DNA of 64,000 nt from Granulicella sp. (lineage in GTDB: Bacteria; Acidobacteriota; Terriglobia; Terriglobales; Acidobacteriaceae): assembly GCA_027339965.1 (NCBI GenBank), contig DAHWNL010000039.1, positions 37,073 to 101,072 on the forward strand, read 5' to 3'. The notes under the pieces are model-generated. The model saw only the letters and a list, made by a program, of their open reading frames with translations. It searched no databases and was not told where the DNA came from. Of this stretch, positions 41,800 through 57,684 are shown piece after piece; position 1 is the first letter of the stretch, and every line of letters begins with the position of its first letter. The position numbers and the translations under genes were made by a program.

Positions 41800-43214
41800 T
41801 CGTCAACCGACGTGGGGTGCGTCAGGCGTCGTAGCGCCTCCCAAAGCGCGCGAAGTCGGCTCCAACAGGGAGTTGGTTCTGTGGACGCATAAGGTTTTGA
41901 ATGGATTTTGGCAGGACCAGGAACTGGGCGAGGTGGTCTTGCCCATACTCTTCTTGGCGCGATCGATTATCCGGCTGGCGATTTGGCAGTGGCGGCCTTT
42001 TCGGTGTCCGGGTGCCTGAGCGCTGACTTAATGTGGTGGTGCAATCCAGCCCGTGGGCTGAAGGCAAACCTGTGCTTATGGCGATACGCATGCAACAGCG
42101 CGGCTTGTAGGCAAAAGTTCGCCGGCTGTGCCAAGGGTCGAGCGTTTCGTGCTAAATCGGTATGAACACTGCATGGCGGAACGCCTTCGGAGTTCGCTTG
42201 CGAGTGCTGCCACAGCGCAACCACGATCGGCGCCTGCGCGTGGACCGGACGGACGAGGAACGGCGGAGACTTCCATGCGCAGAAAGGCAATACCCGCGGC
42301 TGAGCGATCCCCGCGAGTTCACGAAGTGTGGCCAGTCAGCGCCCGGAGGTGGTGGCGCAGCTTTCCGCGGAGATCCTTGGCATCCTCCGGGCGACCCTTC
42401 CCGATACGAGCATGAAGCCGGCCGGAATGAGCATAGCCGACGCGCTGGACGGGGACCTCCGGCCACGAGATACCGACCCCAGCCCAAATCTTTCCGCCGA
42501 GCCGCAGTTGTTTGGCTGACAAGCGATTGGCCGATGCGCATCAGGCCGTCCGTTCCTCACGGCGGAGGCTGGAATCACCGCGCAGTAGAATGCGGACCCG
42601 AGGCCAGCTGTACGAAGAGTTGCCGGCTATCTTTCGATGGCTCTTCAGCATTCCATCCTTCCGCTCTCCAGCCTTGGCAGACGAAATCCGATACCCCTGT
42701 CTCCCACCGCAGGAATTTGCAACGAAGACGCGCCTCCAATTCGCCTTCTCTCGGTCAGGTGGGGCGACTCCGCAAGCCCCCTGAACGGCCAAGAAAAAAT
42801 TTTCTTGCATCTGGAGATCAGGAAGGTGTATACAAGGACCAATCCTGGAGGCGTGCATACACGAGCTAATCCTATTTTGAACGGGAGGCTTGCTTGTGCG
42901 CATCCTTTAGTTGTTGGGCTTCAAGGTCGGAATCGTGTCGGTTCGCGAGACTTCCCCAGCACGGGCCCTCAGCTCTGAGTTCAAAGTGCGTGCAAAGGAA
43001 TGAAGATGCGAATCAATCAACTCCTGAATGCGACCTCCGCCGTTGGTTTGAAAGCTCCAAAGGCAGATTCATCCGCATTTCCGCTAAGCATGCGGAGTTC
43101 GGGCCTGTCCACGGGCTGAGGCCCAAAGCGGGCTTGTTTGGCTTGGTTCCACCCAACAGGCAAAAGAAATAGGCTCCATAAGGAGCAGAATGTAGCAAAA
43201 GATGTCTCGCACTG

Positions 43215-43228
43215 ATAAATCGCTTTAT
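43215..43228. promoter_or_regulatory. Candidate LacI-family operator upstream of the TonB-dependent receptor
   Basis: ATAAA-T-CG-C-TTTAT palindrome with central CG, near a TACAAT -10-like hexamer. Confidence 0.45.
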
Positions 43229-43273
43229 TCGGCTATTGATCCTTACAATACATTCGCTATGGAGGTTAAGTGC

Positions 43274-46200
43274 ATGTCCAAGTTTTCTTGCAGCAGAACT
43301 CTACAAGCCCTTGTGGTGGTCTCCATGTTGATTGCCGCGGAGGCCTTCTCCGCGCAGGTCGTCAGTAGCTCCATCAGTGGCACGGTGACCGACCCTACAG
43401 GCGCGGCAGTTCCAGGGGCAAAGGTGACCGTAACAAATCAAGGAACCGGCGTATCCCAGACGCTGACCACGGACCGGAGCGGATTTTACACGGATGATGG
43501 CCTCGAAGACGGGGACTATAAGGTTGTTGTCTCAAAAACAGGGTTCGAGAGCAATACGACCCTGGCGATCCACCTCAATCCGGGTCAGCGGCGCGGGAAC
43601 AATGTGATCTTGAAGGTGGGCGCGACGAGTTCTTCGGTAAACGTCGTTGCGAATACGGTTCAGGTGAACACCGAGGACTCCGAGAGCAGCGGCACCATCT
43701 CGTCCAAGCAGATCGACAACATGATGTTGAACGGCAGGAACTTTCAATCCCTGGAGGTTATTGTTCCCGGTGTAACCAGCAACGTCGGGGTGGACTCCCT
43801 GGCCGCGTCTGCTCCTTCGACGATCACCGTCAACGGAGTCTCGGCGAGCTATAGCGTCGTCAGCATCGATGGCGTTCAGGACAGCAACGTAGGCGGCGCT
43901 GTCACTGTTGACGTGCAACCGATTGTGGATGGAATTCAGGAGTTCAGCATCCTCAAAAACAACTACAGTGCCCGCTATGCCTACAGCGGGGCGGCCGAGC
44001 CAATCATCGTAACGAAGAGCGGAACCTCCGTATTCCACGGCACCGCATGGGACTATCTGCGCAACAACGCATTTGACGCCAATAACTACTTCTCCACCGT
44101 CAAACAGGGGCTGCATCAGAACATCTTCGGATACACCTTGGGCGGCCCACTGATCATTCCCAAGCTCTACGACGGCCGCGCAGGTACAAAGAAGACATTC
44201 TTCTTCGCCGCAAATCAGTGGTACGTGATTAACCAATCGTCGCTCGCGCGGGGCGCTTCGTTTACCCAGGCGATGCGGGGGGGCGACTTCAGCGCCAGCC
44301 CCACGCTGCCGAAATCTGGAGTTCTGACACTCGACGCAAGCAGCCAGAACATCCTGGCCGAGCAGGGCAAAAGCAACTGCATCCTCGGTCCGACGACGCT
44401 GAATCCGGCGTGTTTCAACCCAGTCGCTGTGAGTCTGATGAATGCATACATGCCATTGCCGAACAATATTCCGGGCGGCTTCCTGAACTATATCAATCAG
44501 CTACCGAATACAACCAAAATGATCCAATATCAATATCGTATCGATCACTACTTCAATGCAAACAACTTGCTCACTGGGCGAATCGTCGCCGATAACGCGG
44601 TCAACGCATCTCCGGATCTTTACTCCGCGTTCTCCAATATTCAGAGCGGCACGTATCCTCACAATAACAGCGAATTGATTCGTCTTCAAACGACATTCAC
44701 TCCAAATCTGATCAACACATTAGGCATCGCGGAGACCGTTGGTGATGTCTACATCTATGCAACCAACCCCGGCACCATTCCGAGCGGAACTCCACCCATC
44801 ATCCAGGCGTTCCCCAAGGCTCCCTACCAGAATCTGATCCCTGACGTCAATATTTCAAGGGGCTGGTCAGGATTTGGGCTTGGCGGCTACCCGATCATAT
44901 CGAACATTGGCGATGGTCAGGCATCCGACGATGTGAGTTGGGTGAAGGGAAACCACGTCTTGCAAGCCGGCGCTCTCTACATATTTGGAATCAAGCACCA
45001 GACCGCCGGGAATGTTACAGAAGGAACCTTCAACTTCAGTGGAGTGCATACGGGTGATCCAGCCGCTGACTATCTTTTAGGGTTAGACTCAAGCTACCAA
45101 CAACAGAACACTGACGGCCTTTATGCCGCCCACTATCGTCAGGGTGAGGCGTACGTTCAGGATGACTGGAAGGCGACTCCACGGCTGATGCTCAATCTAG
45201 GCGTACGCTGGCAGTATTTTTCCAACTACACGGTCAGCGGTGACCAGTTAACGAACTTCGACGCGGCCACGTTCAACCCGGCAGAGGCACCAGTAGTGAA
45301 TCCAAACGACACGCTGCAGGTGAATAGCCAAAATCAGCCGATCACCGCTTCTGGTAGTCTCGCCAACCCCCTCAACGGGCTGGTTTTCGCCGGGAAGAAC
45401 GGGTATTCAAGTGGATTCTGGGATCCGAAGAAGACAAACTTTGGTCCCAGGGTGGGCTTTGCCTATGATGTGTTCGGAAACGGCAAAACCTCCCTTCGTG
45501 GCGGGTATGGAATAGGCTACTTCCAGATTGGATACGATATTGTGAACGCGTGGGGTATCAATCCACCGTTTAACCAGAGCGCAGACGTCCTGAACTCCTC
45601 CATCAGTGACGGAACTCTCGGCACCAATGCCGCACCAACCGTTCAATTTTTAGCGGCTGTACCATTTCATCTTGTTCCGGCCCAGTTGCAGAGCTACAGC
45701 CTGACGCTGGAGCAGCAGATCACGCCGAAGATGGTGGCGTCGATTGGCTATAACGGAGCTCAGGACCGGCATCTGGAGACATTCTCTCAAGACGACAACT
45801 TCCCGCTGCCGGTCAGCGCGCCCAGTTTCAGCGGATGTCTCGCGCCTGGTCAGTCCCCTTCCAGTTCCTATAATTTTGATCCCTGCATCAATGTGGGCGT
45901 GGCGGATGGCGCCTACACCCGTCCTTACAAAGGATACTCAGGAATCTACAACCAATATTATGAAGGCACCTCAAACTATAACGCCTTGGAGACCGGCCTG
46001 ATCTACAAGAGCGGAGCGTCACAGTTCAACCTCGCTTACACCTGGAGCAGGGCGATGGGGAATATGGGCAACATCGGGACTCAGACGGCCACGAGGACCG
46101 ATACCGTTGGTCCGCAAAACCCTAGAAATTGGCACGCGGAGTACGGCCAGGAGTCAGACAGCTTCCCGGTGAACATCACGCTGAGCTGGGTCTATAGTGT

Positions 46201-46666
46201 CCCATATTTCAGTCACAGCAGGAAGTTGCTGACCGAGACTCTGGGAGACTGGAACTTTGCCGGCATCGGCGTACACCAGAGTGGATTTGAACACAGCCCC
46301 GGACTTTCCACCTCAACAAGCGGCGAAGCCTCACGTCCGAATCAGGTGGCTCCTCTCACAAAGGTTGGCACCCTGCAGGAGTGGTTCAATACGAACGCCT
46401 TCGCCGCGCCTGCATATGGATTCTTCGGAAACGCCAACAACGGAATCATTCGCGGGCCAAGCTACACGTCCTTCGACATTGCCCTTTACAAGAACTTCCC
46501 CCTGGTCAACCGGCTTATGTTGCAGTTCCGGGCGGAGGCGTTCAACATAGCCAATCATCCCAACTTTGTGGGCCTGGATACAGGTTTTGGCTCTGGCAAC
46601 TATGGGCACATTACAAGTGCGGATGATCCACGCATCATGGAGTATGCCCTGAAGATCGTCTTCTAA
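43274..46666 (+). CDS. TonB-dependent receptor, Oar-like with carboxypeptidase regulatory-like N-domain
   Basis: Signal peptide, ISGTVTDPTGAAVPGAKVTVTN, TKSGT..FHG, NFGPRVGFAYD, QFRAEAFN, terminal Phe; GGAGG RBS before ATG 43274. Confidence 0.95.
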   Translation: MSKFSCSRTLQALVVVSMLIAAEAFSAQVVSSSISGTVTDPTGAAVPGAKVTVTNQGTGVSQTLTTDRSGFYTDDGLEDGDYKVVVSKTGFESNTTLAIHLNPGQRRGNNVILKVGATSSSVNVVANTVQVNTEDSESSGTISSKQIDNMMLNGRNFQSLEVIVPGVTSNVGVDSLAASAPSTITVNGVSASYSVVSIDGVQDSNVGGAVTVDVQPIVDGIQEFSILKNNYSARYAYSGAAEPIIVTKSGTSVFHGTAWDYLRNNAFDANNYFSTVKQGLHQNIFGYTLGGPLIIPKLYDGRAGTKKTFFFAANQWYVINQSSLARGASFTQAMRGGDFSASPTLPKSGVLTLDASSQNILAEQGKSNCILGPTTLNPACFNPVAVSLMNAYMPLPNNIPGGFLNYINQLPNTTKMIQYQYRIDHYFNANNLLTGRIVADNAVNASPDLYSAFSNIQSGTYPHNNSELIRLQTTFTPNLINTLGIAETVGDVYIYATNPGTIPSGTPPIIQAFPKAPYQNLIPDVNISRGWSGFGLGGYPIISNIGDGQASDDVSWVKGNHVLQAGALYIFGIKHQTAGNVTEGTFNFSGVHTGDPAADYLLGLDSSYQQQNTDGLYAAHYRQGEAYVQDDWKATPRLMLNLGVRWQYFSNYTVSGDQLTNFDAATFNPAEAPVVNPNDTLQVNSQNQPITASGSLANPLNGLVFAGKNGYSSGFWDPKKTNFGPRVGFAYDVFGNGKTSLRGGYGIGYFQIGYDIVNAWGINPPFNQSADVLNSSISDGTLGTNAAPTVQFLAAVPFHLVPAQLQSYSLTLEQQITPKMVASIGYNGAQDRHLETFSQDDNFPLPVSAPSFSGCLAPGQSPSSSYNFDPCINVGVADGAYTRPYKGYSGIYNQYYEGTSNYNALETGLIYKSGASQFNLAYTWSRAMGNMGNIGTQTATRTDTVGPQNPRNWHAEYGQESDSFPVNITLSWVYSVPYFSHSRKLLTETLGDWNFAGIGVHQSGFEHSPGLSTSTSGEASRPNQVAPLTKVGTLQEWFNTNAFAAPAYGFFGNANNGIIRGPSYTSFDIALYKNFPLVNRLMLQFRAEAFNIANHPNFVGLDTGFGSGNYGHITSADDPRIMEYALKIVF

Positions 46667-47419
46667 GGGAATAGTTGTGGACAGAAGGGGCGGTGAGCGA
46701 CACTCGGGTTGCTCTGAGGATCGACCACCGCCGGCTGATCCCTGGACACAGCAGCCGCTTGATCGGAAGCGCGACGTCAAACGCTCTTGGAATTGTATTT
46801 TGATTCTGTTTGCTCGCTCGGAGACCCATGATCTCAGTTGTGCCGCTTTGCAGGGCTCGCTGAGTGAGACTCCGAGCGGGGGAACAGGTAGGAGAACCAA
46901 TGGATAAGCTATCGAACGGAATGGGTTTAGCCTCTGCTAAAAAGAGATGCTTGCTGAGCGAACCGCGCTCGGGACCGGCTACGCGAGTGCGAAATTGAGC
47001 CATTGACACACCCGATGCGGCTTGGATCGTCGCTGAGACAGAGATCCCGTGGAAGTCAATTTCTTCGGCCGCCGTCAAACAAGGCGGAAGTGGCGCTGCG
47101 AGATAGACTGAAAAGAGTCGAGTGGGCATGCTCCTTGGCTATGCAAGCAGCCAGAGAGCCGCCTTGGTCGATCTCGGGCTATACCCACCCGAAGAGTTGG
47201 CCGCGGAACACCAGGCTAGTGGTTCTTCTGCCGTTCGCGTAGGAGCTATATTTGCTACGAAAGAATGATACGTGCAAGCTAGACGGGGTTGATCGATCGA
47301 CCCACCTCAACCCAATAATCTTCCTGCGGCGCGTAAACCGTCAACGAATGCACAACGGGCGTAAATTGCCCATTTGGAAGCAGATCTCCGCTCAAGAACA
47401 CTGAGAGCTATATGACAAA

Positions 47420-49558
47420 ATGACAAAGAAAAATGTGATTCTACCGGGTATGATGACTCTCCTGCTTTGGTCTTTCGGTGGCAGCCGGCTTTTCAGCCAA
47501 ACTTCAGGATCTCCTCAGGTTGTAAGATGGTGCATCCACGGTGCAAGTTCCCCAGCGAGAGCAGGTCGTGGCGAGAGCATCTGTGGGAAAGTCAATGGGA
47601 ATTTCTTTTCGGTACCTGGAGTTGCAGGAACCGGCCTCCGATTCGACGGATACACTACCAGCGTCGTTTGTCCGGAGAGTGTCGCGCCAAAGCTCGGAAA
47701 TTCGTTCACGTTGGAGGCATGGGTGGCCCTGAACACCTACCCGTGGAACTGGGTCCCGGTGATAGACCAAGAGAAGGATCGGCAGGAGGGCTTTTCCTTT
47801 GGAATCGACCCTTTCGGACGCTTCGGATTGAAAGCATCCGTCAACGGGCAATGGCGCAGGCTGATTTCGGTTGAAAACCTCCCATTGAAGAAGTGGCAGC
47901 ATATCGCCGCTACTTTCGAGTCAAACCATGGGCAGAGTCAAATGCATCTCTACCTCAATGGGAGGCAGGTAGGAACTTTAGAGATTCAGGGAACGTTTAC
48001 GCCTGCTCGCACAGACGTTCAGATTGGGCGGGTCCGTCAAGCGACCATGCCATTCCCGCAAGCAGCCATCCATCCCCACTTCGCCATATGGTATTCGCTG
48101 GACGGGATTCTGAATGACGTGACCATGGAGAATCAGACCTTGAGCGGCGAGCAGATAAAGCATGTCTACGCGGAAGCCAAGATCCCGGCGGGGGATGTGC
48201 TGCCCTGGCAGAAGCTGCCATCCGGACCGCCCGGAGCCGGCCGGTTCGGAGCTTATTACACGACATTGCACTACCAGGATGCATGGGACCGTCTGCGGCG
48301 CACAGGAACCGACTCTGACGTGGTTGTACGGTTCGATGATACTCCGGTGCGACTTGTATTCTGGCAAGGTCTGGATTACATACCCGCATGGGTGACAGAG
48401 AATGACAAGTGGTACAACGACAAATATATAGAAACCTTTGGCCAAGGGTGCCCGGATGGCGGGGATTGCGAGCCGATGTCGGACAAACAGGTGCGCTACT
48501 CCCACGTCAAGATTCTCGAGAGCGACGATGCTCGCGCCGTCATCGAATGGCGGTATGTGGACTCCGAAGTAGAAAAGTACGAAGGAGCCAATGCGGATCC
48601 ACTCAGCGGATGGTTTGACTGGGTGAATGAATTTTGGACGGTCTATCCGGATGGGGTAGCCGTGCGGAAACAGGTACTGCACAGTTCAAATCTGGATGCA
48701 TCCCGCGAATGGCAAGATACGCTGGTGATCAACCAGCCCGGGACCCGGCCAGAGGATAACATTCACTGGGATGCGATCACACTGGAGAATATGGCTGGCG
48801 ATGTAAAAACGTACACCTGGAAGCCAAAGCCGGCTGGAAGCTTCACGTGGCCGAACGCCCCCTTAGGCCCCGGCGAGCCGTTCGTGAACGATCCTCCTGA
48901 CCCGAACATACAGTTGGTTAACCTCAAGTCCAACTGGAAGCCCTTCCAAATCCTTCCGCCGGACGGCGTGCGTGTAGACATCTCAAACGGCGAATACAGC
49001 TACTTTAACTTCGAGTGCTGGAACCACTGGCCCGTGGCGCAGATCATCTCCAGCGGTCGGCCTTGTGTTGCGGCTGATCGTGCATCGCATACTGCGCTGA
49101 CACATCTCTGGTGGAAACCCTATGCAAAGCACGGCGATACCGAGACCAAGATTCTGATGGACGGCTTGACGACGCAACCCCCTGAAAAGTTGCTGCCGCT
49201 GGCCCGTTCCTGGCTTTCAGCCCCCAGAATGCGCGTTCTTGGACAGGGTTATCGTGACGACGGATATGATCCCGCGCAACGCGCCTATCTGTTGACAAGA
49301 TCAGGACCTTCCGGAGTTGCTCCTGTACAGGTGACGTTTGATGCCAGTCTAGCTTCTCCCCTTTACGACCCCGCAATTGTCATCCGAAATTGGGGAGAAA
49401 GCGCTGCCAGGCTCGCAATCGACGGAAAGCCCGTTCCGTGGGGAAGTTCCTGCCGGATGGGGCTTGTGCACAGACTGGGCGGTACAGACCTGGTTTTGTG
49501 GATTCGAAGGCAAACCTCTCAAGCACTCCATATTGAGCTGACTCCTGATCGTCGATAG
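47420..49558 (+). CDS. Secreted LamG (concanavalin A-like) domain protein with uncharacterised C-terminal region
   Basis: Signal peptide, GLRFDGYT, FTLEAWV, WQHIAATF, LYLNG; paralog of 61483..63579. Confidence 0.85.
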   Translation: MTKKNVILPGMMTLLLWSFGGSRLFSQTSGSPQVVRWCIHGASSPARAGRGESICGKVNGNFFSVPGVAGTGLRFDGYTTSVVCPESVAPKLGNSFTLEAWVALNTYPWNWVPVIDQEKDRQEGFSFGIDPFGRFGLKASVNGQWRRLISVENLPLKKWQHIAATFESNHGQSQMHLYLNGRQVGTLEIQGTFTPARTDVQIGRVRQATMPFPQAAIHPHFAIWYSLDGILNDVTMENQTLSGEQIKHVYAEAKIPAGDVLPWQKLPSGPPGAGRFGAYYTTLHYQDAWDRLRRTGTDSDVVVRFDDTPVRLVFWQGLDYIPAWVTENDKWYNDKYIETFGQGCPDGGDCEPMSDKQVRYSHVKILESDDARAVIEWRYVDSEVEKYEGANADPLSGWFDWVNEFWTVYPDGVAVRKQVLHSSNLDASREWQDTLVINQPGTRPEDNIHWDAITLENMAGDVKTYTWKPKPAGSFTWPNAPLGPGEPFVNDPPDPNIQLVNLKSNWKPFQILPPDGVRVDISNGEYSYFNFECWNHWPVAQIISSGRPCVAADRASHTALTHLWWKPYAKHGDTETKILMDGLTTQPPEKLLPLARSWLSAPRMRVLGQGYRDDGYDPAQRAYLLTRSGPSGVAPVQVTFDASLASPLYDPAIVIRNWGESAARLAIDGKPVPWGSSCRMGLVHRLGGTDLVLWIRRQTSQALHIELTPDRR

Positions 49559-49829: not shown

Positions 49830-50412
49830 GGACCAGAATGCCGCCGCAGGAGCCGGCCAGTTTCGGCCCCGCATCACGGCTGGTGTCTGCGTTCAGTTTC
49901 TGCTCCATGGCGCGTGCCGCTAATCGCAAAGCCTGCCGCCGCACCGCCATCTCCATAGCCTCCAAATCCAGATTGGCGATGGACTGACGGCCTACGAGTG
50001 CTTCGACTTCCTGAGCGACCTCGTTGGTGAGGCCGGCTGGAAGCCCCCTTTTCTGCCTCCTTGGTCGAGACCGCTGAAGCCTCCTTCAAACTGGCTGTCG
50101 GCCCAGGCCTCGCAGTCTTACCGGTAGGGCTCCAACCCGGCCCCGGAACTGGTGCCCCGCCTGAATCTACTGCAGGACAACGGTGCCAGTTCCCCATTTA
50201 GTAAGCGCGAATGGGTTCTGCCGCTCACAGCGCGGGTGAAGCTGTACTAACGACCATGGCGAGTCTTGGTGTCTTGGGCGCAGGGACATTCCGGCTTGCC
50301 GCACTTGACGGTGCGTTCGGACAAGAAGCCGTGGCGCATGGGCTTGGGCCGGGCCCATGCAGCAGCCAGTTGGCGGTGCCTGCTGGAGGCGGTGTGTTGT
50401 CCACTTCGCCAT
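49830..50412 (-). mobile_element. Degenerate ISKra4-type element: DUF6788-like accessory ORF plus transposase N-terminus
   Basis: MRHGFLSERTVKCGKPECPCAQD..RHG followed by a stop, then LDLEAMEMAVRRQALRLAARAMEQKLNADTS; the rest of the transposase is missing. Confidence 0.7.
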
Positions 50413-50505
50413 CTTAGGGCTGTTGTAACCGTAAGATCCACCGCAAAATCGGCTTCGTTCCGAAAGGCTCGCTCCTGTGTCGCGCGGCCTTGCGGACGAA
50501 TTTCA

Positions 50506-50534
50506 TTGGCATTGTTAACCGACTGTGATATCCT
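50506..50534 (+). promoter_or_regulatory. Candidate sigma-70 promoter of the caspase module
   Basis: TTGGCA-17 bp-TATCCT with TGn extended -10, 65 bp upstream of ATG 50599. Confidence 0.4.
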
Positions 50535-50598
50535 TCCGCCATTTCCGGAGTATTCATCACTAGATTTCGTTGTTCTTTCGTAGAGGAGAACATCAATT

Positions 50599-51663
50599 AT
50601 GAAGCTTTCTCGCAGGAGTGTGTTGCAAGATCTGGCGGGGGTGGGGGGACTGGCTGCCCTGCTGGCGCGGCCGGGAGTTGCGGAAGCGCTGAGCGCTGCG
50701 CTCCAGGCGAGTCAAGCAGTCCCGGCGGATCAAGAGCCGGGTAACGCAGCGGCGTTCTGGAGTACATTTTTGCAGAAGCAGCCCGAGGGGCGCGGGCTCT
50801 TTCATAAGACGCCGGGGATGGATGAGGACCGGCAGGTGAATTTTCTGCATTACAGCGCGACCAAGGGCCTGCGCTACTCGGAGGATGTACATCGGACCGA
50901 ACTGCCGAACTATCCCGGAGATGTGGCAGCGAACCTGAATGTAGGGGGAGTACGGCTGTCAAAGGCGGATCAGCAGGCGTTTGAGGATAAGCGGTCGGCG
51001 CAGCTACGAGTGGACTTGCTGCAGGGTCAGCGGATGTTCGACATGATCGACCCGTTAGCTTGGATGGCGCTGGCCGGGATTTTTCCAACCCGCGCGGGAA
51101 AGTTGCCTCCGCTGCAAAACCTGAGCTTCGATCCGGGAACTTCGATGGAGAGCATGAACCACATCGTGCTGCCGGGAGGGGTTGCGCATCTGGCGATGAA
51201 TGTGTCGATGCTTCCACGGGAGTCACCGTTCATGGCGGTGATCAACAGGCTGGTGACGGACACGAGCAAAGTAGCGCCGATCCTGGGACTGCCCGCGATC
51301 AGCGTAACGGCGCTGAGCGGCTTCAGCAAGTTGTACGGGATGATGGAGGATCGAACGACGTTCTTGTTCCAGTCACGACCGCAGATGGCCTATACGACGC
51401 AGCAAGCGCGCGCAGCGGCGGATACCACGATCGGCATGAACATGCCGGCGGGAGACTATGTGTTGGTGCCGCAAGTGCAGACGGACCAGTTGCAGCCTTA
51501 TCTGAATTCGCTGAAGCTGGTGAATGGCTATCTGGTCAATAAGAAGGCGCCCGCAAACAGTTCAGTGTACGAGCAGGCGCAGAACACTGAGCCAGACATC
51601 AGTTACGTAACGATGCATGTTGGAGTGAAGCCGCTGTATGCCAGTGGCTCAAAATCCTCTTAG
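50599..51663 (+). CDS. Hypothetical protein with twin-arginine signal
   Basis: 354 aa, MKLSRRSVLQDLAGVGGLAALL...AEA; GAGGAG RBS; no recognised catalytic motif. Confidence 0.85.
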   Translation: MKLSRRSVLQDLAGVGGLAALLARPGVAEALSAALQASQAVPADQEPGNAAAFWSTFLQKQPEGRGLFHKTPGMDEDRQVNFLHYSATKGLRYSEDVHRTELPNYPGDVAANLNVGGVRLSKADQQAFEDKRSAQLRVDLLQGQRMFDMIDPLAWMALAGIFPTRAGKLPPLQNLSFDPGTSMESMNHIVLPGGVAHLAMNVSMLPRESPFMAVINRLVTDTSKVAPILGLPAISVTALSGFSKLYGMMEDRTTFLFQSRPQMAYTTQQARAAADTTIGMNMPAGDYVLVPQVQTDQLQPYLNSLKLVNGYLVNKKAPANSSVYEQAQNTEPDISYVTMHVGVKPLYASGSKSS

Positions 51664-51723
51664 CGATCCGCGCCTGCGCCGAAGGATGAAGCAGAGGTTC
51701 GCGACGGGATGAGATGAGACGCG

Positions 51724-52788
51724 ATGTGGAAACATAGGTATGGCGTGAAAGCGGTCCAGACAATGGCGGCAGCGGCCCTAATGGCGGCATGTTGGATGAG
51801 TGGCACAGTCGCGGGTGCCCAACACTTCGGTCTGCCGCTGATGAAGAGCAAAGTTACTCTGCAACGCAAACTTCCGGCAGTGATGCAGTTGCCCGGAACT
51901 TCCGTGAAGATAAGCGTGAGAAGTCGTGGCGGCCCCGAGTATCTTGCGCAGGACTTTGAGTCTATGCTGAGCGCCGAGTTGCTGCGAGACGATCCGCGGC
52001 TTCGGATCGAGAACAGCGGGGCAGACAGCTTGGTCGAATGCCAGATAACAGAGTTTGATCACCCTGCGCCGACGGTCACCGTGAGACCGGGGATTCAGAC
52101 GGGGAGGACCCCGCCGCCTGACGTCGCATATACGCGTGTGACGGGTACGATGCGCGTTTCGTTCCAGGTGCTCAATAGATCGGGAGAGACACTGGGGCAG
52201 GATGACATCCTCGCGCAGTATGACCAGGAGTTTGATACATCGGGCAATGCAGTGAGCAGCGGACTGCTGGGCGGGATGAAGAACAGCTTCAAGCGGATGA
52301 CGGGCGGGGCGAAAAGCGAGAACATGAACCCTCCGACGGACGCAGAACTGCGCAACGATCTCATGACCGACGCGGTGCGGCAGATCGCTCGGCAATTGGT
52401 GACGACGCGGGAAACAATCGAGGTTCTGCTGGCCAAGGGAAAGGGGATGGACGGCGGCGTAAAGGATGCGGAGGCTGGACTGTGGAGCCGGGCGCTGGAA
52501 GCTTGGGAGACGGCACCGGCGCTGCCGAGACCCGTCGATGATGCCTATCGGTTATACGATATCGGGGTGGCGTATGAAGCAATGGGGTATGCGGCGAATG
52601 ATGTGCAGATCGCGATGAGATTTCTGGATCAGGCGTCCATCAATTACGGAAAGGCGATCGACAGCGATCCGGCGGAGAAGTACTTTCTGGAACCGCAAAA
52701 GCGCATCGAAACGGCGCTGGCGCACTACGAAAAGCTTCAGGAGGAAGCAAAACGTCATCCGGTATCTCGATCGGGCTCCGGACGGTGA
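51724..52788 (+). CDS. Secreted hypothetical protein with C-terminal TPR-like helices
   Basis: Signal peptide ending AGAQ; AEAGLWSRALEAW, LYDIGVAYEAMG, YGKAIDSDP. Confidence 0.82.
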   Translation: MWKHRYGVKAVQTMAAAALMAACWMSGTVAGAQHFGLPLMKSKVTLQRKLPAVMQLPGTSVKISVRSRGGPEYLAQDFESMLSAELLRDDPRLRIENSGADSLVECQITEFDHPAPTVTVRPGIQTGRTPPPDVAYTRVTGTMRVSFQVLNRSGETLGQDDILAQYDQEFDTSGNAVSSGLLGGMKNSFKRMTGGAKSENMNPPTDAELRNDLMTDAVRQIARQLVTTRETIEVLLAKGKGMDGGVKDAEAGLWSRALEAWETAPALPRPVDDAYRLYDIGVAYEAMGYAANDVQIAMRFLDQASINYGKAIDSDPAEKYFLEPQKRIETALAHYEKLQEEAKRHPVSRSGSGR

Positions 52789-52817
52789 AGGCACATAGGT
52801 CTTGAGGTGTTGTCGAG

Positions 52818-54182
52818 GTGAATGTGAGGCACTGGATCTCCTACATGCGATGGCTGCTACTGGCGGCAGCGATGAATTGCACCCTTGTACTTCCGAGTGC
52901 GCGCGGTCAGGGAAGCAGGTGCGGTGCGGGCAAGGATTTGATTGTGCAGGCGTTGGAACGCGCTGGACCGCAGAGCAGCGTGGCGGATTTTGAGGATGCT
53001 TTGGAGTTGCTCAAGAGTGCGGCGGCGATGTGCAGTGAGTTGGGCGATGCCTGGTACTACCGAAGCCTGGTGGAGGCTCGACTGGGAGATGCGGCTCTGG
53101 CGAGGTTCTCGGCTGACCAGGCACGGCTGGTCGGATCGGAGGCGCAGAACGAGGGCCTGAATCCGTTTGTTCTGGCGACTCCCTCGGGGCCGAGCGGTCG
53201 AGGCATTGGATCGGCCTCAGGGTCGGGAGCGCCTCCCCGAGCAAGTGCGGGTTCTAAGGTGATTCCGGGACCGGTGCAGCAGAAGTGGGCGTTGGTGATT
53301 GGGATCAGTCGCTTCTCTGATCACAACATTCCAGAGCTGAACTTTACGACCAACGATGCGCAGTCGTTCGCCGAGGTGCTTAGCGATCCTGGAGTGGGGC
53401 GCTTCCCGAAAGCGAATGTGCATATGTTGCTTAATGAGCAGGCGACCACGGTGCATATCAAAGAGCAGATCAATTGGATTGCGCGGCACGCCCAGCCCAA
53501 CGACATGGTGGTGATTTATATGGCGACGCATGGATCGCCACGCTCAATCGATACTGTGGGACAACTGAACTACCTGGTGACCTACGATACGGAGATTGAT
53601 AGCAGCGACCACCCGAATCAGGACGCGCTGTACGCAACGGCGTATCCGATGATCGATTTGACGAATGCAGTTGCGACACGCATGCGCGCTCTCCGGACGC
53701 TGGTGGTGTTGGATACCTGTTACAGCGGAGGATCAATCAAGAATGGTGGAAGGATGATGGGTAAAGGGTTGGCCAATACTTCGCCATCGGCGGCGACCTT
53801 GGAGCGAATGAGCGAAGGTACGGGAAGGATTGTCTTCGCGGCAGCAGGGGTAAATCAGGAATCGCTCGAGAGTCCGAAGCTGCGCCACGGTTATTTCACT
53901 TACTTTCTAATGCAGCAACTGCGCCAGAGCAAGGGACTAACGCCGTTGACGAACGTCTTCACTGCGGTGCAGAAGGAAGTTCCAAAGCAAGTGGCGGAGG
54001 ATGACCCGGGTGATGGCCTGCACCAGAATCCAGTGATGGCGCGAAGCTCGAATCAGGCGGACTTTGCGATTGGCGAACCGGGGACAACGTCGACCGCAGC
54101 GCGGCACCCGGTGGCGGCTTGGCTACCGGGTACCGTCTTGGCAGCTGCGGCTCCGGCTGCGCTTGGAGAGTCCCCACGGTGA
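52818..54182 (+). CDS. Secreted caspase-family (peptidase C14) protein with N-terminal TPR-like region
   Basis: KWALVIGISRF, catalytic His in YMATHG, catalytic Cys in LDTCYSGG, then NQESLE and HGYFTYFL; signal peptide; DAWYYRS TPR-like helix. Confidence 0.92.
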   Translation: MNVRHWISYMRWLLLAAAMNCTLVLPSARGQGSRCGAGKDLIVQALERAGPQSSVADFEDALELLKSAAAMCSELGDAWYYRSLVEARLGDAALARFSADQARLVGSEAQNEGLNPFVLATPSGPSGRGIGSASGSGAPPRASAGSKVIPGPVQQKWALVIGISRFSDHNIPELNFTTNDAQSFAEVLSDPGVGRFPKANVHMLLNEQATTVHIKEQINWIARHAQPNDMVVIYMATHGSPRSIDTVGQLNYLVTYDTEIDSSDHPNQDALYATAYPMIDLTNAVATRMRALRTLVVLDTCYSGGSIKNGGRMMGKGLANTSPSAATLERMSEGTGRIVFAAAGVNQESLESPKLRHGYFTYFLMQQLRQSKGLTPLTNVFTAVQKEVPKQVAEDDPGDGLHQNPVMARSSNQADFAIGEPGTTSTAARHPVAAWLPGTVLAAAAPAALGESPR

Positions 54183-54492
54183 GGTATCGCGTCGAGTAGC
54201 TGGAGCAGGGCAGCCAAACTCCGGAGCTTGTTTCGAAGCTATATTCCTCGGTGCCAATATCTGCACTCGGGAGAAACGAGAACGGCCTATTCCATGCATT
54301 CGTGCAGACGCCATACTGCTTTCGCCGAAACATTTCCGCAGAAATCGGAGTTCATCAGCGGTCAATTCCAATGGTTTGTCGATCTGGGCGAAGGCAATTG
54401 TTCGCATCAAGTCGTCGTGGATTAGGGAAGCTCTGATCAAGTTCCCAACGGGCATTCATTGCGTCTAAACGTATAGGTGGACCAAGAACGCA

Positions 54493-54647: not shown

Positions 54648-55070
54648 TCAAGGGAGGGAGGTTTCGCTTTGCAGAGCGGCCAGGCGGAATTTCTGCGTAA
54701 CTTTCCAGCGGTCGGGTAGCCAGTTTGGCAGGTCGCTGACGTGCAGCGTCGACAGATTGACCAGCAATTGCGTGAGATAGATCTGAGGATCGATGTCGTG
54801 ACGGCGGCAGGTTGAGGTAGGGCTGGCCAGGATAGCCGCCGTCCAGCCGCCGCGGGCGTTGCCAACGAACAACGAATTCTTCCGATTTAGCACCACCCGT
54901 TTCATCTCGCGCTCGGAAACGTTGTTGTCGATACGTACCGCGCCGTCGGAGGCAAACACGGTCAGTTCACGTACCGCGCCGTCGGAGGCAAACACGGTCA
55001 GTTCCTCCCATAGCCAGGGCATAGTTGAGTGCCTCGGCCATGGGATGCTTGGGCAACAACTGCTCCTTCC
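54648..55070 (-). pseudogene. IS66 family transposase (TnpC) C-terminal fragment
   Basis: LLPKHPMAEALNYAL (frameshift), IDNNVSEREMKRVVLNRKNSLFVG, TCRRHDIDPQIYL. Confidence 0.88.
54933..55004. repeat. Perfect 36 bp tandem duplication
   Basis: ACGTACCGCGCCGTCGGAGGCAAACACGGTCAGTTC twice; encodes ELTVFASDGAVR twice on the minus strand. Confidence 0.95.
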
Positions 55071-55518
55071 AGACCGGCCCCCTGTAGGGCTGCCTTCACC
55101 CAGGTATAGCTCAGGTCGATCCCGTGCTCCTGGCCCAGCTTCTCATGAAAATGCAGCACGTTCAGATCGAAATACCGCTCCCGATATAGCCCAAGAACCT
55201 GCTCCACTTGCTCCAAAGGCACCCGCTTTTGGCTTGGCCGGCCACGCCGTCGATCCATCAGTCCGTCATATCCCTCGGCTTCGTACCGCTCCCGCCAGCG
55301 CCGCATCTGCCGGTCGCTGATGCCCAAAATCTCTGCCGCTTGCCACCACGTGATCTTCCTCGCTATGGCACGCAATATCACTTCTTGCACCTTCATCGCC
55401 CGCTCCACTGCGGCCCTCGGATAGAACTCCATGCTCGTCTGCATGGAGCCATCTTCGCCGCCCGCTATGCGGACATTTCATTCGCTAAAGCTACCGGACA
55501 TATCATGTGCTAACGACA
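55071..55518 (-). mobile_element. Truncated IS1202-type (ISNCY) element: left end plus HTH part of the transposase
   Basis: End begins TGTCGTTAGC with two TGAnATGTCCG subterminal repeats; ITWWQAAEILGISDRQMRRWRERY...HFHEKL...LSYTWVK; DDE domain absent. Confidence 0.75.
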
Positions 55519-55619
55519 AGCGTGATCTTCCATCTTGCGCTCTCGTTCAGAATGCTGTACAGTCAAGTGCCGGTCGAGATTTTTGCAGCGAACAGCGATG
55601 AGGGTCTTAACCGTTTGTG

Positions 55620-55898
55620 TCAGCCGAGGGGGCAACCCCAGTTGAGGGCGTAGTGTCCAAAGCGGTTGAGATGCTCGGTCAGGTATGGGATGGAGCAAGC
55701 AATGAGGTTCGCGTCCAATTCATAGCCCTCTGTGACCAGTCGTTCCAGTGCGTTGCTCATGGTCACAATGTTATGGAAGATCAAGAGATTGGCGACAAGG
55801 TGGTTGTATTTGATGAACTTGCGCTGCTCGTCCCGAATTCCTTCTGCTGCCAATGCTCCGCCGCCGAAGGCTATTCACTGAAGAAACTGATTGAACGC
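55620..55898 (-). pseudogene. Tn3 family transposase C-terminal fragment
   Basis: FNQFLQ*IAFGG...RDEQRKFIKYNHLVANLLIFHN...PYLTEHLNRFGHY. Confidence 0.85.
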
Positions 55899-55923
55899 TG
55901 AAGCGGCTGGGAGGGATCGCCTC

Positions 55924-57684
55924 ATGTGGATCGGTGCTCGGTGCGTGCAAATCAACCAGGCTGCCATCGCATGGGCCGTGGCGGCAACCGTGGCGCTGGG
56001 CTTTGCTCCCATGGCGTGGGCGGCAGCAGCGCACGCAGTAACGATGCCCACAGTCGCGGCTCATGGCATGCCGCATCTGGAACAGGAACATGGCGCAACT
56101 CAGTTGGTGGTCAATGGCAGGCCATTTCTGGCAATCGGCGGCGAACTGCAGAACTCCTCGGCGTCCAGCTTAAAGTTCATGGACAATCAAGTATGGCCCA
56201 AGGTCGTGGCCATGCACTTCAACACCGTCATTGCCCCCGTGTACTGGGATCTGATCGAGCCCCAGGAAGGCCGTTTTGATTTCACCACAGTCGATGGGCT
56301 CATCGCCGGAGCCAGAGCACGGCACATCAAGCTCGTGCTGCTCTGGTTTGGAACCTGGAAGAACAGCATGTCCTGCTACGTGCCGGATTGGGTCAAAGAG
56401 AATCAGACGCGCTTTCCCAGGGCGGAGTCTGCCGACGGGCGCAAATTGGAGATCTTGTCGGCAGTGAGCAAAAGCAACCTGGACCAGGACAAGGCTGCCT
56501 TCGTGGCGCTCATGCGGCACCTCAAGCAGTTCGATGGAGTCCAACATACGGTGATCCTCGTGCAGGTGGAAAATGAAGTCGGGATGATTGAAGTAGGACT
56601 GGTCTTTGCACCCGGCGGAGTCCAGCCACGCGATCAAAGCAAGGCGGCGAATCAGGCCTTTCAGCAGCCCGTTCCCTCGGCCCTCACCGATTATCTCAAG
56701 CAGCATCGGGCCACCCTGCAGCCCTGGCTCAAGCAGACCTGGGAGTCCCATGGCGCACGGACGGGCGCCAGTTGGACGGCAACCTTCGGTCCCGGGCCAG
56801 TCACCGACGACCTGTTCACCACCTGGACAGAGGCGCAGTACACCAACCAAGTCGCCGCCGCAGGGAAAAAAGTCTATCCACTTCCGATGTATGTGAATGC
56901 CGCGCTAGTTGGCCCCGGCAATCCTGTCGGCATGGTTCCCAACGGCGCTCCGCTGCCGCAGTTGTTTGATCTGTGGCGAGCCGCGATACAGTCCACAGGC
57001 GGGGCAATCAACTTCTTCTCTCCGGACATCTACTCTCCCAACTTCAATCACTGGGCGGATGCCTACGCGCAGCCTTGGAATCCGCTGTTCGTGCCAGAGA
57101 GTGGAGGTGCCAGCCCGGCAAACCTCGGTCTGAATGCGCTCTATGCCTTCGGCGAACACGATGCTATGGGGTATTCGGTCTACGCCCCGGAGTTTTTGCC
57201 CCCTGATCGACAGAAAGCGCTCGGCGACGCCTATGACGTCATCCGCCAGATCACGCCGTTGATTTTGCAGAAGCAGGGAACCGCACAGATGGTCGGAATT
57301 CGCACCCCGCTGAGCAGGAGCGGCAAGCCGGATCTTTCGCCGCAGACCTTTCAGCTTGGCGGTTACCAATTTACCGCGCAGTTCACCCGCCAGTCCTACA
57401 CAGAGAGAGGCAAGCCGCTTCCCGGTGCCCACGGAGGCCTCGTCATCGCCATGGGGCCCAATCAGTTTCTGGTCGCGGGAACAGGAATGTCCCTTCAATT
57501 TTCCGGCACTAGGAAGCCCGGCGCGCAGGCGGGGATCGATTCCATCTGGGAAGGTCAGTTCGTGGATGGCAAGTGGACGCCTGGACGCGAGCTCAACGGT
57601 GATGACGACCACCAGGGACGTTGGCTTTCACTCCCATCCAATCAACTCGTCCTTCGCATGGTCAGGCTCTATACCTACCAGTGA
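55924..57684 (+). CDS. Secreted GH35-like beta-galactosidase with DUF5597-type C-terminus
   Basis: GGELQNSS, PVYWDLIEPQEGRFDF, WFGTWKNSMS, VQVENEVG, FSPDIY, PLFVPE, RELNGD; GGGAGG RBS. Confidence 0.88.
   Translation: MWIGARCVQINQAAIAWAVAATVALGFAPMAWAAAAHAVTMPTVAAHGMPHLEQEHGATQLVVNGRPFLAIGGELQNSSASSLKFMDNQVWPKVVAMHFNTVIAPVYWDLIEPQEGRFDFTTVDGLIAGARARHIKLVLLWFGTWKNSMSCYVPDWVKENQTRFPRAESADGRKLEILSAVSKSNLDQDKAAFVALMRHLKQFDGVQHTVILVQVENEVGMIEVGLVFAPGGVQPRDQSKAANQAFQQPVPSALTDYLKQHRATLQPWLKQTWESHGARTGASWTATFGPGPVTDDLFTTWTEAQYTNQVAAAGKKVYPLPMYVNAALVGPGNPVGMVPNGAPLPQLFDLWRAAIQSTGGAINFFSPDIYSPNFNHWADAYAQPWNPLFVPESGGASPANLGLNALYAFGEHDAMGYSVYAPEFLPPDRQKALGDAYDVIRQITPLILQKQGTAQMVGIRTPLSRSGKPDLSPQTFQLGGYQFTAQFTRQSYTERGKPLPGAHGGLVIAMGPNQFLVAGTGMSLQFSGTRKPGAQAGIDSIWEGQFVDGKWTPGRELNGDDDHQGRWLSLPSNQLVLRMVRLYTYQ

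Follow-up and report, generated by a model that had tools for sequence, protein, structure and literature searches.

Introduction

Bacterial caspase homologues with signal-peptide-like sequences or an extracellular assignment were counted in 2012, when surface or fratricidal roles were speculated for them (PMC3501461). We describe here a locus of three adjacent genes, called A, B and C, in a 64,000-nt stretch of DNA from Granulicella sp. (contig DAHWNL010000039.1; this stretch is referred to as the window, and positions are counted within it). The genes encode a protein of no known family with a predicted twin-arginine translocation (Tat) signal (A), a partner protein (B) and a C14 caspase-like protein (C). 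The module is real, conserved and apparently undescribed, and represents an exported variant of the protease–effector kind. Published literature yielded no description of A, the B–C pair or the locus, in line with the original prediction for this DNA, which recognised no described system; supplementary neighbourhood tables could list the module. The reading developed below is that of an arginine-specific caspase-like cascade in the cell envelope, in which A would be the dedicated substrate and a cut would free a membrane-acting core. We hold it tentatively, its chances falling somewhat short of even.

Several described systems resemble this locus, and our statements about them refer to the portions of the cited sources used here. 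Protease–effector modules (the α/β-hydrolase with LcCaspase, EACC1, Pepco, MBL; PMC12642450) combine a conserved effector with interchangeable proteases and site-specific activating cuts. The present module differs from them in having a predicted export signal on every part and no fused STAND or other cytoplasmic sensor. A matches none of their effector families in Pfam, no EACC1 match is found in A or B, and C scores 99.1 bits on the EACC1-associated caspase model NF047832, under its cut-off of 140. None of the terms periplasm, signal peptide, secretion, C2 domain and CsgG turned up in a search of the main text of that report. Bacterial gasdermins provide a second comparison: 43 of 50 lie beside proteases, C14 or CHAT, so that one conserved protein adjoins a caspase-fold protease, and release of a short inhibitory peptide is proposed (10.1101/2021.06.07.447441). 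Unlike in gasdermins, the proposed inhibitory piece of A is N-terminal and the components are predicted to be exported.

Orthocaspases and metacaspases with N-terminal signal-like helices (PMC3501461), including Tat-like pseudo-orthocaspases (PMC6426788), share the C14 domain, the acidic pocket and predicted export with C, but appear in the portions used here as single proteins, without partner genes like A or B. DdvA of Myxococcus xanthus is a structurally solved periplasmic TPR-CHAT protein in a defence regulon (PMC11506125). The DdvA/DdvS system resembles the module in its periplasmic caspase-fold domain with helical repeats and in the proposed signal-induced proteolysis. DdvA, however, is a membrane-spanning anti-sigma factor with a CHAT domain, whereas the module comprises a soluble C14 protein and two soluble partners; no sigma or anti-sigma gene is present in the window, and Pfam finds no anti-sigma domain in C. 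Given DdvA and the exported homologues catalogued in 2012 (PMC3501461), the view in the original prediction that well-characterised bacterial caspase systems are cytoplasmic is too strong.

A conserved protease locus of Acidobacteriota

Genes A (50599..51663, 354 aa), B (51724..52788, 354 aa) and C (52818..54182, 454 aa) are co-oriented open reading frames (ORFs) on the + strand, with gaps of 60 bp (A–B) and 29 bp (B–C), as originally described. The proposed substrate or effector, A, is followed by B, which combines a predicted Sec-type signal with a CsgG/PelC/LptE/TolB-N-like domain and TPR helices. C consists of a predicted Sec-type signal, a small helical domain with a Cys pair, a linker and the C14 caspase-like domain. 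An alternative ATG at 52845 matches the 445-aa database copy of C and may be the true start. In comparison with the nearest relative, L001, synonymous and amino-acid-changing codons number 63 and 29 in A, 90 and 33 in B, and 119 and 53 in C; purifying selection acts on all three genes. Named homologues of the module proteins are from Acidobacteriota. The 3.8-Mb genome of origin contains a single copy each of A, B and C, with one C14 match and one CHAT match, and C14 is entirely absent from three relatives that lack both A and B. The same genome has a separate 1121-aa TPR-CHAT-like gene (G000:C31:37465-40830, - strand).

We found A at 47 genome loci, 25 of which carry A–B–C in order. Two others carry A–B with C cut off, 15 have an ~820-aa caspase with C14 and a DUF4384-like region (D) beside A, one has a TPR-CHAT protein (E), one has none of these and three lie at contig edges. 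A wider set comprises 80 A loci (three duplicates dropped, weak matches excluded, window included). A caspase-fold gene is present within 3.5 kb of A in 53 of the 60 loci with 3.5 kb of flank on both sides, and near A in 10 of the 20 loci with truncated flanks. Of 401 genomes drawn evenly from the class, 26 have A, with a strong match in 23, and 28 have B, at full length in 19; the two occur together in 14 genomes where about 1 is expected, kin among these not being independent. Twenty of 27 strong A copies in this sample lie beside a caspase-fold gene, and the genomes of the other seven have caspase-fold genes elsewhere (B–C in five, a second A beside TPR-CHAT in one and three C14 genes in one).

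Around B, the order B then C is found directly in 14 of 16 further regions, indicating that B–C is a fixed pair that can lack A. The window thus holds a subset of a modular Acidobacteriota locus with a B–C core, in which A is also found with D or E. One locus carries D-A-B-C-E in a single run, where C appears frameshifted (L084), and another carries D-B-C-E without A (L151). When the partner type is mapped on a tree of 68 A proteins, it changes 15 times, with a minimum of 6, on what is a quick tree only, with long-branch warnings. Conservation of the three-gene order, proposed as a check in the original prediction, is seen at about half of the 47 loci, but the unit is modular and not a fixed trio.

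These counts bear on the simplest alternative, in which insertion sequence (IS) activity brought together genes with unrelated jobs. Transposase fragments do flank the genes in the window, but the recurrence of A–B–C, the excess of genomes with both A and B, and purifying selection refute a chance cluster, to which we assign almost no weight.

The modular locus has further components. The A–D loci share a conserved extension (~11700-15900 in L023, L028, L029, L032, L033, L037, L038 and L041; partly in L035) that encodes three further exported proteins: an uncharacterised one of 310 aa, an M48 metallopeptidase and another caspase, of 450 aa, which carries an Arg-Gly motif of its own. A relationship between the 310-aa protein and B was considered and is unsupported (profile probability 0.16%, from a shallow alignment). 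A distant A clade (L157-L159, L161-L163) adjoins genes for a caspase-DUF4384 protein, a caspase-Sel1 protein and a pYEATS-nonspecific endonuclease-TPR-S-trypsin fusion. By eye, a TIR-like gene without a Pfam match is also adjacent. This clade comprises eight related loci from one query, several of them near-identical.

Protein C, a predicted arginine-specific protease

C matches Peptidase_C14 in Pfam (E 7e-20; 72.1 bits against a cut-off of 21.4). The caspase domain (53283..54065, +) includes H238 (53529), C301 (53718), D180 (53355) and D299 (53712), and all four residues are invariant across 140 C homologues, so that the catalytic His-Cys dyad is intact as predicted. From their positions in the motifs, D180 and D299 probably form an acidic pocket equivalent to that of Asp95 and Asp211 in TbMC2. 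Residues of this pocket typify Arg/Lys-specific caspase homologues (PMC6426788; PMC8283722), and C is predicted to be Arg-specific.

The protein was first viewed as a TPR-caspase. The C14 assignment stands, but the N-terminal helical domain matches TPR_16 below threshold (E 0.08; 13.8 bits against 32.7 in Pfam), and a profile comparison between this domain and the TPR of B gave no match. Its identity as a TPR is doubtful.

A shared Arg-Gly linker motif

A motif common to the linkers of A and C supports the proposed cascade. The linker of C is hypervariable yet keeps an Arg-(Gly/Ala/Ser)-hydrophobic motif in 126 of 140 homologues, where shuffling of each linker gives an expectation of 28.9, and in 30 of 41 locus proteins (7.0 expected). 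The motif was chosen after viewing the data, and the shuffles gauge the size of the effect and are not a prior test. R128, conserved at at least 90%, and G129 (53199..53204, +) form the proposed processing site between the helical and caspase domains. Among the 11 locus proteins that lack it in the linker, seven carry the motif past the catalytic Cys instead.

In A, a length-variable linker follows a short conserved helix that contains F53-W54 (50743..50763, +). Of 128 A sequences, 84 have Arg-Gly in this linker (32.5 expected); 54 of 94 distant representatives do so (23.6 expected), and there it is the most enriched dipeptide. R65-G66 (50791..50796, +), downstream of the helix, is the proposed cleavage site. 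The alternative proteases carry the motif as well: in D it follows the catalytic Cys in 24 of 26 sequences (4.9 expected) and is present in the tail of all 26 (10.5 expected), and 8 of 15 E proteins have it near the C-terminus, judged by eye without a control. B has no linker Arg-Gly motif, and its single common match (R256) lies within a predicted helix.

A bacterial C14 protease, LcCaspase, was shown to cleave its effector, a hydrolase, at conserved R|G sites (PMC12642450). The motif shared by A, C and the alternative proteases matches these sites, which provides external support for the proposed cleavage code. The suggestion in the original prediction that A is a substrate is thus strengthened at the level of sequence, by the R|G-type motif and by three caspase-fold protease partners. 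We consider cleavage of A at R65 by a protease of the locus probable.

The linker of A can also be read as bait. A would then be a periplasmic inhibitor whose Arg-Gly loop fills the active site and quiets the locus proteases, which would explain both the association of A with any caspase-fold partner and the presence in its loop of the processing motif that the proteases themselves carry. Inhibitor loops are rigid, unlike that of A, which varies in sequence and in length (15–83 residues in the measured stretch), and B–C pairs persist without A. We regard this explanation as improbable.

Export signals

Protein A scores 18.5 bits on the NCBIfam Tat-signal model (cut-off 16.7). The predicted Tat signal peptide (50599..50688, +) includes R5 and R6 and would be cleaved after residue 30, judging from an Ala-x-Ala pattern. 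A twin-Arg-like motif is present in 118 of 129 full-length A homologues (alignment A3), and tatC is found in the genome of origin. For B and C, export was judged by a hydrophobicity heuristic in which a hydrophobic h-region should lie ahead of the mature start, with internal windows as controls. Such a region was found in 106 of 109 B homologues (10 of 570 internal controls) and in 135 of 137 C homologues (136 of 700 controls).

Of 41 locus-derived C homologues, 39 retain the Cys pair C35/C72; the remaining two start with twin-Arg-like N-termini. Loss of the pair in twin-Arg-like forms only is expected if Sec-exported C needs a disulfide, and offers independent support for export. In L149:9361-10506 and L150:8933-10105, a twin-Arg-like signal replaces both the Sec signal and the Cys pair. 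Lipobox-like motifs are scarce, with 5 in 114 B and 2 in 145 A sequences. Taken from these conserved signals, the predicted export of A, B and C is well supported, and an export signal for each gene had been part of the original prediction.

Structure of protein B

On its structure model (pLDDT 84), B carries a CsgG/PelC/TolB-N-like fold. The CsgG/PelC/LptE/TolB-N-like domain (51871-52404, +) makes up two thirds of the protein and is followed C-terminally by the TPR helices (52435-52752, +), so that the earlier description as a TPR protein applies to the smaller part. Residues 50–227 align with Cj1090c (Z 12.5; root-mean-square deviation, or rmsd, of 4.1; 129 residues aligned) and with PelC (Z 11.9, rmsd 2.6, 118 aligned), and the TPR helices align with BamD (Z 10.8, rmsd 2.1, 101 aligned). 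Foldseek returns the CsgG/PelC-like fold at E 1e-6 to 1e-4, and Pfam LptE matches at 25.3 bits against a cut-off of 23. The fold of residues 50–227 is like that of CsgG, PelC, LptE, TolB-N, FlgT and Cj1090c. B differs from the CsgG/PelC group in its ~12% identity, the absence of a lipobox, the fused C-terminal TPR and its tie to a caspase gene. Many B homologues (P0184-P0242) have an extra small helical C-terminal domain of ~70 aa that is missing from the window copy.

This fold opens a further explanation, polymer maturation. A would be a subunit that loses its propeptide at Arg, and B a ring or chaperone, in the maturation of a polymer at the surface or in the periplasm. Type V pilins are matured by gingipains, the N-terminal segment of A is propeptide-like, and the fold of B is common to CsgG, PelC, TraT and FlgT-type ring proteins. 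Against this stand the scarcity of lipobox-like motifs in both proteins, the occurrence of A without adjacent B and, as weak evidence, the lack of a pilin or curlin fold for A in structure searches. We give polymer maturation only a slim chance.

Structure of protein A

A has no match in Pfam, NCBIfam (the Tat signal aside) or PADLOC, and Pfam finds only Tat signals in 28 distant members of a family that numbers 346 relatives among representatives at the 50% level. Its structure model is confident (pLDDT 88.7, pTM 0.87). The core (residues ~105-347; 50911..51639, +) is predicted to be a β-sandwich that is weakly C2-like (best Z 6.5-6.6), and the top structural rows, which span these residues, are nearly all C2-bearing proteins. 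C2 domains nevertheless differ from A, with Z at most 6.6, 4–12% identity, large insertions in A and no Pfam C2 match; Z values of 6.5–6.6 are below proof of kinship and may reflect a common arrangement only. A Foldseek search of the PDB with the A model gave no match at E 0.001, and a sequence search of solved structures with A, B and C returned nothing useful. Gasdermin is absent among the listed sequence and fold matches of A, whose model is a β-sandwich, though an unlisted family is possible.

The core includes an inserted pair of amphipathic and hydrophobic helices that forms a predicted helical hairpin (residues 206-252; 51214..51354, +). One helix is strongly amphipathic, and the other is part of that conserved stretch of mature A which has the highest hydrophobicity. 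From the order of the strands, considered without coordinates, the insert may lie in the loop that faces the membrane in a C2 topology.

Other matches to A are more distant. In the Foldseek viral library, the model matches an uncharacterised 323-aa protein of Hokovirus HKV1 (E 2.7e-5, TM 0.41/0.44, 10% identity), the sole match at E 0.001 across the Foldseek libraries tried. A 73-member cluster in the ESM Atlas, in which Bacteroidota are commonest, resembles A structurally (TM 0.70-0.76), and the A family may extend past Acidobacteriota. The Atlas also points to DUF3103, a lead (score 0.85, 148 shared features) that falls short of the range taken as reliable. No relatives of A were found in viral contigs (one distant query) or in plasmids (two queries), and no RNA holder was listed, an outcome without bearing on expression.

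Proposed cascade and its alternatives

In the proposed cascade, B and C would cross the inner membrane via Sec and A, already folded, via Tat. C would be a zymogen held or sensed by B. A trigger would lead to cleavage of C at R128, after which C would cut A at R65; D and E may substitute for C or act in series with it. The cut at R65 would remove the F53-W54 helix from the C2-like core, and the freed hairpin could then engage the membrane from the periplasmic side. Given the R65 cut, we see a slightly better than even chance that it switches on membrane activity, and, given membrane activity, about an even chance that the role is defence or antagonism.

The occurrence of conserved A with interchangeable C14 and CHAT proteases follows the gasdermin pattern. 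In its fullest form, the proposal would make A a new class of caspase-activated membrane effectors, C2-like, kept latent by a short N-terminal helix, exported in folded form by Tat and switched on by a periplasmic Arg-Gly cascade, with B reading envelope damage or an intruder. We consider this fullest form unlikely. If true, it would amount to a gasdermin-like switch for death or antagonism that acts from outside the inner membrane, an R|G code joining several exported proteases in series.

Several observations weigh against the cascade. All locus counts include kin that are not independent, and so overstate the evidence. The linker Arg-Gly is missing from 40 of the 94 distant A representatives. 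Seven of the 60 loci have A away from any protease, where it mostly retains its Arg-Gly, and B–C is found without A: among 19 genomes that have B at full length, 5 lack a strong A match. The likeness of A to C2 is weak (Z 6.5, rmsd 3.9, 133 aligned), and the hairpin is moderately hydrophobic, with a median best 19-mer of 1.52 and 53 of 145 sequences reaching 1.6. Defence genes are rare nearby: 2 of 119 flanking ORFs at 32 loci match a PADLOC model at 1e-10, in a test without a background set, for which long ORFs were shortened to 420 residues and whose ORFs may include spurious ones. The neighbours are housekeeping or metabolic genes, the same within several clades, unlike those of mobile defence islands. 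The Terriglobia flanks are thus not defence islands. A possible defence role is favoured by the patchy presence of A, found in 2 of 4 other genomes of the genus, and by the distant A clade beside caspases and the pYEATS-nuclease-TPR-S-trypsin gene.

The stable housekeeping neighbours would also suit a non-lethal role in envelope signalling or remodelling, in which A would be a ligand-binding sensor or a scaffold, the cut at R65 would only mature it, and the effect would be exerted elsewhere, for example through anti-sigma cleavage. Conserved polar residues in the A core (R137, D139, Q142 and N201) resemble a binding site, and DdvA, with its proposed anti-sigma cleavage, provides a precedent (PMC11506125). 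Eight of 64 loci have a gene for an extracytoplasmic function (ECF)-like sigma factor no more than 2.5 kb away, where ~0.02 per locus is expected from the Granulicella genome; these eight form about three related groups from which the profile was built, and the excess is inflated. The other 56 loci, the window included, have no such gene within 2.5 kb, and the module has no membrane-spanning component. Sigma proximity is a weak lead, and we would not expect signalling to be the answer, although it deserves more weight than bait or polymer maturation. The ECF-like gene directly follows the module downstream of C in L003, L004, L005, L008, L011 and L014, and is also found at L143:11371-12775; in L004 it is accompanied by DUF4252. 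The probability not taken up by the cascade and the four alternatives considered here belongs to readings that we have not listed.

Genomic surroundings in the window

A promoter-like site upstream of A (50506..50534, +), proposed originally as a candidate promoter, is 1 match where 1.7 are expected by chance, and does not stand out. The genes had also been described as bracketed by IS relics. Downstream of C this is correct, with Pfam matches to IS66, an IS481-like helix-turn-helix and Tn3 among transposase fragments (54648..55853, -). Upstream there is only a broken DUF6788 fragment (50250..50345, -), a probable IS relic with a second copy on contig C51; we take DUF6788 to be linked to IS elements. 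DNA similarity to L001 is confined to 50499-54253, indicating that the IS-bearing flanks are particular to this genome and not to the system.

Around the cassette (43202-49558 and 55891-57684) lie genes for a TonB-dependent receptor-like protein, a protein with a LamG/pentraxin domain and a GH35/DUF5597 glycoside hydrolase, which suggests that the cassette interrupts a carbohydrate-use region. A start-less or degraded ORF (54123-54455, -) has a weak match, far below cut-off, to an MqsA-type antitoxin and is possibly a toxin–antitoxin relic.

Implications

Exported bacterial caspase homologues have been predicted for more than a decade, and the portions of the 2012 report used here name no substrate for them (PMC3501461). 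The locus offers, in a small unit of three genes, candidates for the substrate and the partner, and points to the precise bonds that may be cut (R65 of A and R128 of C). If the cascade is correct, the protease–effector logic of bacterial immunity would reach the envelope, with an effector fold that has no solved relative. Should A instead prove to be an inhibitor, a sensor or a polymer subunit, this would be the first function for the A family and for extracytoplasmic caspases of Acidobacteriota.

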